Assembly (NCBI GenBank): GCA_963851445.1
Contig: CAWKPH010000001.1
Coordinates: 361,363 to 425,362, forward strand
From: an uncultured bacterium
GTDB taxonomy: Bacteria; Patescibacteriota; Minisyncoccia; Phycocordibacterales; Phycocordibacteraceae
Direction: 5' to 3'
Length of the DNA: 64,000 nucleotides
Shown piece after piece: positions 32,876-48,800 of the stretch; the first letter of the stretch is position 1; each line of letters opens with the position of its first letter. A program made the position numbers and the translations under genes. Under the pieces are notes generated by a model. The model did no database searches and was not told the origin of the DNA. It worked only from the letters and a program-made list of their open reading frames with translations.

Positions 32876-33540
32876 GAGGAGTAGACACTGATCCTTGACA
32901 TCTGAATACGTAAATTAAAGGTATCAACGTCATGTTTCGAAAGAGACATGACAGTGAATTGCATTAGATCATAAAATTGTGGTGTTCAGGTTTCCGCACA
33001 GGAAACGTGAAGGGTGCACGGTGGATGCCTAGGCTTAGAAAGGCGATGAAGGACGTGACTAGTCTGCGAAATGCTCCGGGGAGGTGACTTGTAACCTTTG
33101 ATCCGGAGGTGTCCGAATGAGGAAACTCAATCCGAATGGATTACCTATCTCTATTGAAATAGGAGCAAACCCAGGGAAGTGAAACATCTCAGTACCTGGA
33201 GGAAAAGAAAACAACAGCGAGTTACTTTCCGTTCGCCCGATGCTTCGGGCGGATGGAAAGTAACTCTCGCGATTCCCTAAGTAGCGGCGAGCGAAACGGG
33301 AAATAGCCCAAACCAGATACTTCGGTATGTGGGGTTGTAGGGCAGAGGTTCCGTACTTGTATGGCAAGAGTTACAAAAGACTTATATAACGGAAACTGCT
33401 GGGAAGCAGTGCCCTAGAGGGTAATGGCCCCGTACGTGAAATATATGATCACTCTTGTGCTTCTATTCCTGAGTAGTTCGAGACACGAATAGCTCGGATG
33501 AATCTGCCGGAACTAACCGGTAAGGCTAAATACTTTCTAA

Positions 33541-33586
<46 letters not shown>

Positions 33587-34159
33587 GAAAGGGGAGTGAA
33601 ATAGAACTGAAACCGTGCACTTACAAAGGGTTATGGCGGGTGTTCGCATCCGTTATAGCGTGCCTATTGAAGAATGAGCCTGCGAGTGTATGTATGTTGC
33701 GTTGGCTAAATCCGTTATGGGATGGAGCCCTAGGGAAACCGAGTGTGAATAGCGCGTTTGTAGCATACATACGACCCGAAGCCAGGTGAGCTTGCCATGG
33801 GCAGGGTGAAGTTCAACGAAAGTTGGATGGAGGCCCGAACCCGTACGTCGTACAACGCGTTGGGATGACCTGTGGTAAGGAGTGAAAAGCTAATCGAACC
33901 TGGTAATAGCTGGTTCTCTCTGAAACATCTTTTGGGATGGCGTCGTGTGATCCTTCTGGGGGTAGAGCACTGGAAGGGATGAACAGGGAGAAATCTCGTC
34001 ATTCCTATCAACCTCCGAATACCAGAAATTAACAGCACGGCAGTTAGACCATGGGGGCGAAGCTCCATCGGTCAAAAGGGGAAGAGCCCGGATCGCCAGT
34101 TAAGGTCCCTAAATCGACACTGAGTACAACTTAAGGAAGTGAGAATCCTTCGACAATGA

Positions 34160-34191
<32 letters not shown>

Positions 34192-35065
34192 GATAGCGTA
34201 ACAGCTCACTCATCGAGGGTTCTTGCGCCGAAGATAATCGGGGTTAAGTGTCGTACCGAAGCTGCGGGTTTGTGCACTTCATAGAGAGTGTGTTTAAACA
34301 CGTCCTTTCTATGAAGTGCACAAGCGGTAAGAGAGCGTTCCGTTCTGCGATGAAGGATAAAGGGGTGACCCATTCTGGAGCGTACGGAAGTGAGAATGCA
34401 GGTACAAGTAACCACAATGCGGGTGAGAACCCCGCACGTCGAAAGATCAAGGTTTCCTCAGCTATGGTGATCAACTGAGGGTTAGTCGGGCCTAAGGGGA
34501 TGGCGAAAGCCGCACCCGATGGACACAGGGTTAATATTCCCTGACCGATTACACATGCGATGGAGTGACGGACGGCTGTACGTAGTGCCCATTATTGGAT
34601 TTGGGTCAGTGCCGTGAGGAGGTGTCCTAGGAAAATCCGGGATGCACATACTCCGAGCGGAAAGGCAATGCTCTTCTTCGGAGGGGCAGAGACTACGGAG
34701 CGCGGTTCCAAGAAAAACTTCTAAGCTTCAGTGTGTAACGACCGTACCGCAAACCGACACAGGTGATCAGCTCGAGTAGAGTAAGACGAACGAGTGAGAG
34801 GTCCTCAAGGAACTCGGCAAAAAAGCGGCCGTAAGTTAGCGATAAGGCCTGCCCCATATCAAGTTATAGGGCCGCAGCGAAAGATTTTCTGGCAACTGTT
34901 TACCAAAAACACAGCTCCCTGCGAACTCGTAAGAGGATGTATAGGGGGTGACGCCTGACCAATGCCGGAAGGTCAAGCAGGGACGGTAGTATAGATTTCG
35001 ATTTGTACGTGCTAGGCCCTATAAGCCCCGGTGAATGTCGGCGATAACTATAATCGTCCTAAGGT

Positions 35066-35258
35066 TCTGCATAGGATTCGTCCTATGCAGAACGGATTGG
35101 GACGATTATAGGAGACCGTAAACAGTTCTGAGAAGATTACGTCATTAAAAGCTACCTCTTTCTTTGGAAACGAAGATTGAATCCGCAACTCAAATGAGAG
35201 GCCATACGTTGCGCTCCCGAAAGGGATGAAGATATGGTCCTTCTTGAAGGAATAGAAG
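35066..35258 (+). other. intron-like / intervening sequence 1 in 23S (about 193 nt)
   Basis: It splits the universally conserved CCUAAGGU|AGCG(A)AAUUCCUUGUC sequence (E. coli about 1925-1931). It begins with a perfect hairpin, ctgcatagga-ttcg-tcctatgcag. It contains gggacgattatag, complementary to the upstream exon ctataatcgtcc. Confidence 0.5.
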
Positions 35259-35919
35259 AGCGTAATTCCTTGTCTGGTAAGTTCAGACGTGCACGAATGG
35301 CGTAATGACTGGAAAACTGTCTCGAGGACTCGCTCGGTGAAAATGCAATACCGGTGAAGATGCCGGTTACCTGTAGTTAGACGAAAAGACCCCAGGAGCT
35401 TTACTACAGCTTCATATTGAGGCTGCGTGGCTCATGCGTAGAATAGGTGGGAGGCTTTGAAGTGTCCTTTTCGGGGGACATGGAGCCGACAGTGAAATAC
35501 CACTCTTGAGTTGTGCAGTCTCTAACCTACATAAGAACTATGTGGGGACCGTGTGTGGCGGGTAGTTTTGGTGGGGCGCTATCCTCCTAAAAAGTAACGG
35601 AGGAGTCTATTAAGGTTGGCTAGGCGCGAATGGAAACCGTGCCGATAGTGTAAGGGCATAAGCCAGCTTAACTGCGAGACGTACATGTCAAGCAGATGCG
35701 AAAGCAGAGCCTAGTGAACCGATGGTTCGCCTTAGATGCGGCCAGAGATTAACGGATAAAAGTTACCCTGGGGATAACAGGCTAGTTCCGCCCAAGCGTC
35801 CATAGCGACGGCGGAGTTCGGCACCTCGATGTCGGCTCACCTTAGCGCGGGGCTGGAGAAGGTCCCAAGCGTTTGGCTGTTCGCCAATTAAAAAGGTACG
35901 CGAGCTGGGTTCAGACCGT

Positions 35920-36260
35920 GCAGAAATTAATTCTGGAATTTATTCTATGACTCGATTTCTGCACCGTCTGAATCCCTTTGAGATTTCTGTTATCAGAACT
36001 CGATAAAGTGCGAATGTGAATGTCTTTTCGTCGTACAAGACGAATAAGAACCAACCATGACACGGCGACGTGTGCAGGAATGTACAACGATCAATCAACT
36101 AATATCGGTAAAACCCGATCCGGAAACGGAGGACAATACCGAGGGAAATCGAAAGATTGACCCGTAGAGACTGAATGTTGATCACCTAGAACCGGTGAAG
36201 TTACAGTCCGATCCCTTCAGTAATGGAGGCGCATGCGTAAAGCAAGCATAAAACAAAATG
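35920..36260 (+). other. group I intron-like insertion 2 in 23S (about 341 nt)
   Basis: It splits GGGUUCAGACCGU|CGUGAGACAG, the equivalent of the E. coli 2593 site. The 5' exon ends in U and the insert ends in G. Internal accgtctgaa pairs 9/10 with the 5' exon end ttcagaccgt, which is IGS-like. No ORF lies inside. Confidence 0.55.
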
Positions 36261-36624
36261 CGTGAGACAGGTTGGTCTCCTATCTACTACAGGCGTTGAT
36301 TTTTGAGGAGAGTTGCCCCTAGTACGAGAGGACCGGGGTGAACTGACCTCTGGTCTACCAGCTGTCTGCCAAGGCACCGCTGGGTAGCTATGTCGGGATG
36401 GGATAACTGCTGAAAGCATATAAGCGGGAAGCCCACTCCAAGATTAGAAATCGTTATGAGACACCTAGAAGATTACTAGGTTGATAGGCTCTAGATGTAC
36501 GCACAGTAATGTGTTCAGTCGAGGAGTACTAATATGTCCAGTTTCTTGTGCGGAATTCTGTATGGCACAATTTGTTTGGTCGCATACATTATTTCATATA
36601 CTATTTACGTATTCTAGTACGAAC

Positions 36625-36752
36625 GTACCCAGAACGCTGGTGATTTGTCCGAAGGGCCACACCCGTTCTCATTCCGAACACGGCAGTTAAGCCTTCCTGA
36701 GCCGATGGTACTCGTAAGGGGAGAGTAGGTTGTCGCCAGCGTTCTGGGTACG
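36625..36752 (+). rRNA. rrf: 5S ribosomal RNA
   Basis: Helix I gtacccagaacgctgg ... ccagcgttctgggtac. Conserved loop ccgaacacggcagttaagcc and gccgatggtactcg. Confidence 0.8.
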
Positions 36753-46549: not shown

Positions 46550-46736
46550 GGACTCATTGCCTCGTGGGGGCGTATTTTTTACTCTCCAGAGTAAGGCAGC
46601 GGCACCTTGAAAACAGAATACGTTAAACACAACTTGTGCATAGAAGTGCATTATATAGAGCTATACAAATCAGTGGAATATAAGTATGCAGGGAGAAATC
46701 CTTGCAAGTGAATTCTTTTGTTCCGCCTATTCTTAA

Positions 46737-48197
<1,461 letters not shown>

Positions 48198-48416
48198 CGG
48201 ACCGAGTTGATAGAGATATCACTCATTGTCGATCTGTTCGTATGCGGAGCGTTGAGAATTTTCTCAATTATTTTGCATGCGGCAGGGGAGATGACTGTTG
48301 TCCCAAAACACAGTACGGACGCCGGAAAAACGCACCGGCACGTGGGATCGCTCAATTGACGATCTCACACGGAATAGGCGGAACACAAGAGCGCACTTTC
48401 CACTGATTTAGATTCT

Positions 48417-48456
48417 AAAAACAAACAGCCTGAGTTACTCAGGCTGTTTGTTTTTA
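48417..48456 (+). terminator. rho-independent terminator downstream of 16S
   Basis: aaaaacaaacagcctgag-tta-ctcaggctgtttgttttt: a perfect 16-bp stem with flanking A-run and T-run. Confidence 0.7.
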
Positions 48457-48725
48457 GAACGTTGCGGTAGCGTTGTTCGGGGCATGCTCATTTTTCATGC
48501 GAGCGAGCTTGAGAACGCACCGACGCCAAATCCTATACTTATTCCTGTGTCGGCGAAGCTTATCTTCAAGCGTGGAGTAATGACGCCTATGTCGTGATTC
48601 GCGATTTGTGACGCGATGCTGCATCCTTAGGTTTGAGTATAACTCAAAATCTTCTATGCTGCTGGGGAAAAGGACAAAGTTGCCTAAGGGTTTAGATTTG
48701 ATACTATCCAGAGACCAGACAATAC

Positions 48726-48800
48726 GCAAGCGTAGCTCAGTTGGTAGAGCACCCGACTGATACTCGGGCGGTCGAAAGTTCGAATCTTTCCGCTTGCACC
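48726..48800 (+). tRNA. tRNA-Ile (anticodon GAT)
   Basis: Cloverleaf folded by hand. Acceptor gcaagcg/cgcttgc. D arm gctc-agttggta-gagc. Anticodon arm cccga-ctGATac-tcggg. 5-nt variable loop. T arm gaaag-ttcgaat-ctttc. Discriminator A. CCA is not fully encoded. Confidence 0.8.

Follow-up and report, generated by a model that had tools for sequence, protein, structure and literature searches.

The 193-nt insertion interrupting the 23S rRNA gene in the 64,000-nt stretch of DNA analysed here (the window) is quite probably a miniaturised group I intron, located at site L1931 and belonging to a lineage termed class A below, in which the P4-P6 domain is replaced by 7 nt. Judging from sequence comparison, the class A mini-introns clearly seem to descend from group I introns, and under the structural model presented here group I-type splicing is the most likely mode of their removal. 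A natural group I intron without P4-P6 would constitute a previously unclassified family, widespread in the ultra-small CPR bacteria, that fails two of the features by which group I introns are defined, namely P4-P6 and the wobble pair at the 5' splice site; no description of such an intron was found in the literature, our search of which was incomplete in coverage.

Location of the insertion within the gene for 23S rRNA

The window contains a bacterial 23S rRNA gene (32996-36553) followed by the 5S rRNA gene, with the 16S rRNA gene located 10 kb downstream. The 23S rRNA gene is 3558 nt long, compared with 2925 for the LSU model, and is interrupted by exactly 193 nt at 35066-35258, in the context ...aactataatcgtcctaaggt / tctgcatagg...gaatagaag / agcgtaattccttgtc. 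With cmscan and the Rfam bacterial LSU model, model positions 1953 and 1955 were separated by a 195-nt insertion, both flanks being aligned with high posterior probability (conserved sequences ...CUAUAAUCGUCCUA and AGCGUAAUUCCUUGUC), and in a MAFFT alignment the 193 nt follow position 1933 of a 2906-nt copy of the E. coli 23S rRNA, which, counting from Psi1911/1915/1917 and m5U1939, we take to correspond to the standard U1931/A1932. These two independent alignments bear out an initial sequence-only reading, which had described an insert of about 193 nt in the H69-H71 region of the 23S rRNA, and they dispel its concern that the flanking motifs might have been misaligned and the extra sequence might belong to a variable helix. 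The same reading had called the site a known intron hotspot, and rightly so, as L1931 is a group I intron site, including in CPR bacteria (Tsurumaki et al. 2024, PMC11270868).

The insertion itself contains no open reading frame of significance, the sole one being an antisense ORF of 46 aa, and an Rfam scan of it at E<=10 matched no family beyond chance level (matches to the Flavivirus DB element and to snoRNAs, with E-values of 0.4-7, were set aside as chance). The group I model RF00028, whose gathering score is 50 bits, likewise gave no match at E<=10. Group II introns are composed of six domains, measure at least ~400 nt and carry a domain V consensus; the insertion, at 193 nt, had no Rfam group II match at E<=10. 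An intron of the archaeal type, in which both splice sites lie in 3-nt bulges flanking a 4-bp helix, was also considered and rejected: the bulge-helix-bulge motif is absent from the folds of the insertion, in which the 5' splice site is found within or at the base of a continuous helix and the 3' site follows a 3-4 bp P9.0 stem. Both the small size of the insertion and the failure of the Rfam model are accounted for by the clean absence of the P4-P6 domain.

As regards the rRNA genes as a whole, they are unlinked and arranged in an unusual order, 23S-5S (32996-36741) being followed by ~10 kb of protein-coding ORFs and then by 16S and tRNA (46732-48798). The 16S rRNA gene has no large insertion. 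Relative to E. coli, the 23S rRNA gene has small insertions at 33216-33267 (52 nt), 33332-33385 (54 nt) and 34268-34294 (27 nt), near E. coli 226, 289 and 1163, and these three look like expansion or IVS-type sites. A second large insertion, of 341 nt (35920-36260), is located at the equivalent of E. coli 2593; it is preceded by U, ends in G and has no ORF. In its sub-threshold match to the Rfam group I model (23.9 bits, E = 3.9e-4) P4-P6 is aligned, and the insertion probably represents a group I intron of the ordinary kind, though a divergent one.

Related insertions at L1931 and the P4-P6 domain

One genome per species was scanned for any insertion after CCUAAGGU, which returned at least 120 loci; among the matches listed, ~75 loci have an insertion exactly at L1931, and two classes can be told apart. 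One of them, class B, comprises ordinary group I introns, present in many phyla, whose guide CGCUAGCCUUAG lies a few bases inside the 5' end. The other, class A, shares the architecture of the insertion in the window and, among the matches listed, is nearly confined to Patescibacteria/CPR (Paceibacterota, Nomurabacteria, Yonathbacteria, Kaiserbacteria and others). Once metagenomes had also been scanned, with the 5' signature of class A as the query, at least 105 distinct class A introns were obtained in all, spanning 178-1105 nt, of which the forms without P4-P6 (short forms) span 178-240 nt.

The comparison with 23S rRNA genes of related genomes, which the sequence-only reading had proposed as a check, revealed that this site is occupied by insertions of like architecture elsewhere: the 23S rRNA gene of the window is 87-88% identical to that of two metagenome contigs (L167 and L154) and 84.5% identical to that of a Ca. 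Paceibacterota MAG (L078), and the same mini-intron is present in all three. The intron core is 85% identical to that of L167, compared with 88% for the 23S rRNA itself, which suggests that the core is under constraint similar to that on the rRNA. The covariance-model scans proposed in the same reading, unproductive with Rfam, succeeded with a model (R1) built from 31 short forms, which gives a single match in the window (209 bits, E = 1e-55). Among the matches listed, R1 aligns 48 distinct short forms at 167-236 bits, and it scores the P4-P6-bearing relatives at 87-148 bits and canonical L1931 introns at 50-60 bits. A core-only model (R2) was used to look for cores without P4-P6 at other rRNA sites; every match above 45 bits was an L1931 class A intron, a null result which is weak, R2 having also missed the L2593 intron of the window itself. 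Weaker R2 matches at other sites were rejected as ordinary cores with P6' ahead (...CCCGUAGAGACUACACG...).

Canonical group I introns at L1931 were also observed outside the CPR, in MAGs from many other phyla and in a single archaeon of the Woesearchaeota (e.g., loci L018, L022, L036, L059, L064 and L076). Many of them are 620-790 nt long, and those of this length probably carry endonuclease genes. Occupation of the site seems to be much more widespread than would be expected from the few classical cases in bacteria.

What separates the short forms from their longer relatives is the distance between P3 and AGAG-P7, which is 7 nt in the window (UCAAAUG) and 4-7 nt in all short forms (the window and 49 others listed), as opposed to ~66-74 nt in the relatives L050, L070 and L113, where it accommodates a P4-P5-P6 of ~70 nt. 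The elements P3, AGAG-P7, P3', P8, J8/7 and P7' are shared by the short forms and P4-P6-bearing class A. In the ORF-less class A introns of 243-323 nt, UAUAUGCUGGGAAG...AUCAGCAGGGAAG...CCCUC lies between P3 and AGAG-P7, and their layout, P3 - UAUAUGCUGGGAAG (P4) - P5 - AUCAGCAGGGAAG (P4', P6) - CCCUC - AGAG-RCCA (P7) - P3' - P8 - GAAGAUAUGGUCC (J8/7, P7'), is, as read from sequence, that of an ordinary core of the group I type. L050, which is one of these introns, gives a full-model match to Rfam RF00028 (27.7 bits, E = 2.3e-5) with P3-P8 aligned and has AGAGGCCAUACG and GGAUGAAGAUAUGGUCC in common with the window; relatives reach 24-28 bits on the Rfam group I model, against its gathering score of 50. 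In the window intron J3/4, J4/5 and J6/7 are gone along with P4-P6, only the 7-nt linker being present, and a search of the 64-kb window for a stand-alone P4-P6 found none, the loose matches (8 observed, 5.9 expected) being at chance level. To our knowledge, P4-P6 is among the best-studied of RNA domains and is regarded as universal in group I ribozymes; its absence may leave a group I ribozyme inactive or very slow.

Structural model of the insertion

The full model comprises 69 pairs in 11 helices, pseudoknots included, and is based on the alignment of 48 distinct short forms; its elements are listed in Table 1.

Table 1. Elements of the structural model of the L1931 insertion, in window coordinates
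Element	Position	Strand	Basis
5' exon segment bound by the intron	35048..35060	+	H69 3' strand and loop, CUAUAAUCGUCCU; 13 pairs, 96% of cells paired in 48 sequences
P1 5' strand AGGU, last four exon nt	35062..35065	+	pairs with ACCU in 99.5% of cells
5' splice site	after U35065 (E. coli U1931)	+	insertion site by cmscan and MAFFT
5' hairpin, 11 bp, UUCG loop, in the P1 loop	35066..35091	+	12/12 pairs compensatory; 96.5% paired
Helix X 5' strand GGAUU	35094..35098	+	pairs with 35180-35184; 98% paired
Exon-binding segment GGGACGAUUAUAG	35099..35111	+	complement of H69 3' strand and loop; RNAfold, alignment
Variable A-rich linker	35112..35150	+	conserved GUAAACAG... AUUACR motif (alignment A1)
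Internal guide sequence GCUACCU	35151..35157	+	GCU with 3' exon AGC, P10; ACCU with 5' exon AGGU, P1
P2 hairpin, 6 bp, GAAA loop	35161..35176	+	6/6 pairs compensatory; 97.6% paired
Helix X 3' strand AAUCC	35180..35184	+	covariation with GGAUU
P3 5' strand GCAAC	35185..35189	+	pairs with 35208-35212; 6/6 family pairs compensatory; 97.5% paired
Linker UCAAAUG, 7 nt	35190..35196	+	replaces P4-P5-P6 (alignment of short and long forms)
AGAG and P7 5' strand	35197..35206	+	invariant motif; fits Rfam group I consensus near P7
P3 3' strand GUUGC	35208..35212	+	pseudoknot with P7
P8 hairpin, GAAA loop	35214..35228	+	4/5 pairs compensatory
J8/7 and P7 3' strand AAGAUAUGGUCC	35229..35240	+	nearly invariant; compare RF00028 consensus gaUgAAGAUAUAGUC
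P9.0 (UUC/GAA) and loop	35241..35257	+	3/4 pairs compensatory
P9.0 loop AAGGAAU	35247-35253	+	pairs with 3' exon
Terminal G (omegaG), 3' splice site after it	35258	+	G in 47/48 and 49/50 short forms
3' exon targets	35259..35271	+	AGC (P10); AUUCCUU 35265-35271 bound by P9.0 loop

In this alignment 94.4% of the cells are paired, compared with 34-41% when partners are slid by 1-3 columns, and the covariation score is 0.484, compared with ~0.065 for slid partners and equalled by 0/500 shuffles, although these shuffle-based measures are inflated by the relatedness of the sequences and by the fitting of the alignment (A3) to the nested helices. In an unfitted MAFFT alignment 91.9% of cells are paired, with a score of 0.449, and RNAalifold predicted six of the helices of the model unaided. 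For P1 and P10 no covariation is possible, the exon bases being invariant.

The two features on which the sequence-only reading had dwelt are both real: the hairpin ctgcatagga-ttcg-tcctatgcag extends to 11 bp when the pair U1-A26 is counted, and the exon complement, described as 12 nt long and read here as gggacgattatag (35099-35111) against exon ctataatcgtcc(t) at 35048-35060, covaries with the exon. Three pairs between the H69 strand of the exon and intron GGGACNNUUAUAG have changed on both sides; pair 11/86 is CG in 32 sequences, UA in 12 and UG in 4, and pair 12/85 is GU in 21, CG in 14, GC in 6 and UA in 3. RNAfold pairs the complement with the exon over 15 bp, and the intron with its flanks has z = -5.3. 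The pairing is considered to exceed chance because the intron segment changes together with the exon across relatives.

Similar evidence is available for the other helices. Helix X, which is GGAUU/AAUCC in the window and GGACU/AGUCC in most short forms, has CG 41 / UA 7 at one pair and GC 45 / UA 2 at another, and P9.0 has UA 25 / AU 22 and AU 23 / UA 23. The pairs between the P9.0 loop and the 3' exon (AU 41 / UA 6 and UA 41 / CG 3) track changes in the exon, the variants observed being AUUCCU/AGGAAU, AUACCU/AGGUAU and GUACCU/AGGUAC; with AAAUACC or AAGUACC in the 3' exon, the sequence of the intron loop is AGGUAU or AGGUAC. These two exon sequences are found in the CPR 23S rRNA genes at L005, L028, L098, L147, L159, L177 and L180 instead of the near-universal AAAUUCC, which is E. 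coli 1936-1942 and includes the m5U1939 position.

The P7 region is the least variable. AGAG, the P7 pairs G-C and C-G and the next C are invariant in 31/31 sequences, the two P7 pairs also in 48/48; beyond AGAG, the C-C-A that follows one variable base and GUCC are invariant, and in the P7 strands G-A-G-R-C / G-U-C-C the pairs G-C, R-U and C-G are conserved. From the sequence we read G35198-C35240 as paired, A35199 as bulged and G35200-C35239 as the guanosine-binding pair, an arrangement presumably equivalent to the Tetrahymena guanosine site (C262-G312 / A263 / G264-C311). J8/7 AAGAUAU fits the RF00028 consensus. The ends of the insertion were examined as for a group I intron: U35065 precedes it and G35258 ends it, and in the short forms these are U in 48/48 and G in 47/48. 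P10 (GCU/AGC, 3 bp) is possible in 46/48, with GUU in 5 of those and an invariant exon, and G[CU]UACCU is present in 45/48. Its counterparts are GCUGCCU in the P4-P6-bearing relatives and CGCUAGCCUUAG in canonical L1931 introns.

Two other assignments of P1 were rejected. If the 5' hairpin were P1, as in the Rfam alignment of L050, exon positions -2 and -3 could not pair 3' of the hairpin, and this assignment is also disfavoured by the downstream GCU(A/G)CCU, which is the counterpart of the canonical guide and gives U.G in P4-P6-bearing forms. Extending the exon/GGGAC... helix up to the splice site as P1 leads to two mismatches, and GGAUU covaries with AAUCC instead. In the assignment adopted here P1 and helix X cross in secondary structure; on an argument from geometry, the 5 bp of helix X could coexist side by side with P1 (4 bp plus one base), the two spanning the same pair of junctions. 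The GUAAACAG ... AUUACR motif of the linker at 35112-35150 was also observed in some P4-P6-bearing forms, and in the window the linker may form a small helix, GAC(C)GU/ACGUC.

A P1 of 4 bp (AGGU/ACCU) is possible in the window, where A35154 of the guide stands opposite the splice-site U, so that the splice-site pair is U-A and not a U.G wobble. Among the matches listed, all 50 short forms place A opposite U1931 and none places G there, whereas of the 17 P4-P6-bearing class A introns listed 1 has A and 16 have G; Fisher's exact test of P4-P6 absence against A opposite U1931 gives 1.5e-14 when phylogeny is ignored, and a regular-expression count over the at least 105 class A introns yields 46 and 44, most of the 7 exceptions being explained. 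The U.G wobble is normally essential for recognition of the 5' splice site, and in known group I ribozymes it is read by J4/5 of P4-P6; the joint loss of both makes mechanistic sense and supports the assignment of the guide sequence. In a neighbour-joining tree, which rests on differences of 1-3% over 179 columns and has no bootstrap, and in nearest-neighbour identities, short and long forms are interleaved (e.g., L102 with L137, whose 5' hairpins and P8 are nearly identical). This hints, at the level of sequence, that P4-P6 may have been lost more than once; we do not claim multiple losses because the resolution of the tree is too low. The terminal G is found in 49/50 short forms, compared with 7/17 P4-P6-bearing class A introns. 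The 10/17 not ending in G (L070, L095, L113, L136, L137, L144, L169, L197, L209 and L223, e.g. ...GGAAGCGAAA/AGCG) may have a non-canonical terminal nucleotide or misassigned 3' splice sites.

Proposed splicing, competing explanations and known counterparts

Group I-type splicing is considered likely because the P7 site, J8/7, P9.0, the terminal G and the covarying pairing with the 3' exon are conserved, and none of these would be of consequence except for transesterification and exon ligation. In CPR genomes the 23S rRNA gene is usually single (PMC11270868), and the intron must consequently be removed or else tolerated at the subunit interface.

In the mechanism that we envisage, the core that is kept would consist of the P3/P7 pseudoknot, a guanosine pocket made of a bulged A and a G-C pair, P8, J8/7, P9.0 and the terminal G. 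The guide sequence would pair with the last four bases of the 5' exon (P1) and the first three bases of the 3' exon (P10), and to these would be added a 13-bp helix between the intron and the H69 strand, the 5-bp helix X, tying the P1 loop to the strand entering P3, and a helix of 7 bp joining the P9.0 loop to the 3' exon. Watson-Crick pairing of ~27 nt (13 + 4 on the 5' side, 3 + 7 on the 3' side) would thus anchor both exons to the P3-P7-P8 core, and we infer that this tethering would stand in for the tertiary docking of P1 against P4-P6. A guanosine bound in P7 would attack after U35065, the terminal G would then take its place and the 5' exon would attack after G35258; exon ligation would restore CCUAAGGU-AGCG, with the junction ...AUCGUCCUAAGGU/AGCGUAAUUCCUUG, and let H69-H71 form. 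Comparison with the P4-P6-bearing class A introns, in which the exon tethers are already present, suggests that these tethers may have made the loss of P4-P6 tolerable.

A bolder version of this proposal, which we put forward tentatively, is that the 178-240-nt elements are autonomous, self-splicing and the smallest natural group I-type introns, working with the P3-P7-P8 half-core only, without P4-P6 or the wobble, ~27 nt of exon pairing and helix X having replaced docking, and P4-P6 perhaps having been lost repeatedly with the same G-to-A change.

The absence of both P4-P6 and the G.U wobble would also be compatible with a catalytically dead relic, which has a group I-like fold but is no ribozyme and is excised by proteins, for which the long exon-intron helices could be recognition sites. 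A precedent is provided by the group I introns in the nuclear rDNA of lichen fungi, likewise shortened within rRNA genes (by ~100 nt) and deprived of supposedly needed catalytic sequences, which are removed in vivo and absent from mature rRNA but do not self-splice in vitro (PMC8527467); they differ from the window intron in being eukaryotic and nuclear, in having lost other parts, with no clean loss of the whole P4-P6 reported, and in having been shown not to self-splice. A dead relic nevertheless appears unlikely here. Across divergent lineages there is little or no variation in AGAG and the P7 G-C, in J8/7 AAGAUA or in the terminal G, residues whose only importance would be for the chemistry of a ribozyme; in the short forms the terminal G is conserved better than in the P4-P6-bearing ones, and no candidate protein is encoded inside the intron. 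The H69/H71 region forms part of the subunit interface of the ribosome, and it is very improbable that the insertion is retained at such a site, as an expansion segment of the mature 23S rRNA lying between H69 and H71; the 13-bp pairing of the intron to the H69 3' strand would preclude H69, and a retained segment would have no use for P9.0, for the terminal G or for a 3' exon pairing that covaries, even though an unspliced 23S group I intron has been described in a chlamydia-like bacterium (Everett et al. 1999, as cited in PMC11270868).

The sequence-only reading had offered three alternatives, namely a degenerate or minimal group I intron, a different self-splicing element and an intervening sequence processed by RNase III. 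The first is the one favoured by the evidence, with a group I core kept while P4-P6 is absent, and the hairpin and exon complement are conserved elements of the intron. The second is contradicted by the 3' half of the insertion, which fits the group I core consensus, and by longer homologues that are recognisable group I introns. As to the third, under which the insertion would be excised without ligation and the 23S rRNA fragmented at 1931, such sequences have been suggested to occur among the short ORF-less insertions of CPR 23S rRNA (PMC11270868), and the exon/intron duplex together with the 5' hairpin makes a near-continuous helix of ~28 bp; this duplex, however, contains exon bases, so that cleavage would destroy H69, and the two ends of the insertion are not complementary and remain unpaired with each other in MFE and centroid structures, leaving no terminal stem. 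The site, moreover, is the H69/H71 junction, a group I site and not a hairpin loop known for intervening sequences (e.g., helix 25 or 45). With homology to group I introns and with a terminal G, P9.0 and exon-tracking pairings that would serve ligation rather than simple excision, we give this alternative hardly any credence. It is just as hard to believe that P4-P6 is supplied in trans, for instance by the L2593 intron (35920-36260) or by a separate small RNA. The second intron of the same 23S rRNA gene does have an aligned P4-P6, and Doudna and Cech in 1995 reportedly added P4-P6 in trans to a Tetrahymena ribozyme lacking it, but the window has no stand-alone P4-P6-like sequence, and the joining strands by which P4-P6 docks, J3/4 and J6/7, are gone as well.

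As a miniaturised group I intron, the insertion can be compared with several known systems. Published L1931 introns include those of Thermotoga, Simkania and organelles and those of CPR bacteria with LAGLIDADG endonucleases, e.g. I-ShaI (PMC11270868). Canonical class B introns share with the window intron the site after U1931, the terminal G, the P3/P7 pseudoknot, P8 and the J8/7 consensus, and their guide CGCU-A-GCCUUAG corresponds to GCU-A-CCU; unlike it, they have P4-P5-P6, P9 and a 7-bp P1 with the U.G wobble near the 5' end, and they are without three elements of the window intron, namely the helix with H69, helix X and the pairing of a loop with the 3' exon. The P4-P6-bearing, ORF-less class A introns (L050, L137 and L136; 243-323 nt) contain all its core and peripheral elements, that is, the 5' hairpin, the GGACUGGGAC... 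exon-binding segment, helix X, P2, P3, P7, P8 and the P9.0 loop, and differ in the ~70 nt of P4-P6, a G opposite U1931, a weak Rfam match and, in many, an ending without G.

An engineered P4-P6 deletion described by Ikawa in 2000 was reportedly active; as would be the case in the window intron, the P3-P7 domain alone carries the catalytic centre, but the construct is laboratory-made and needs helper conditions, whereas the window intron is natural, conserved, widespread and equipped with exon-binding helices of its own. Of similar size range, and also with a core of the P3/P7 pseudoknot type, are the Azoarcus tRNA-Ile intron (~205 nt) and the GIR1 lariat-capping ribozyme (~180-190 nt), both of which keep P4-P6, and GIR1 catalyses branching, not splicing. 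In group I ribozymes P3-P7 is the catalytic centre and P4-P6 a scaffold (PMC6257700), and GIR1 has been the subject of modelling (PMC2219692).

Of the insertions in CPR 23S rRNA, 45% match the Rfam group I model (Tsurumaki et al., PMC11270868), and the remainder are mostly short, ORF-less and 'uncharacterized', with an RNase III-type origin suggested (PMC11270868). Mini-introns would explain part of this remainder as having been missed by Rfam-based screens, and a covariance model and a site-specific signature are now available for finding them; the insertion also marks sequence to be stripped before rRNA-based phylogeny. If the reading proposed here is true, it would provide a ready-made minimal ribozyme system of ~180-190 nt in which the contribution of P4-P6 can be tested. 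The same introns could be used to test the coupling of the G.U wobble with its receptor, as the two vanish together here, and whether exon tethering by secondary structure replaces tertiary docking, and compact self-splicing cores of this kind would be of interest for RNA circularisation and trans-splicing tools.
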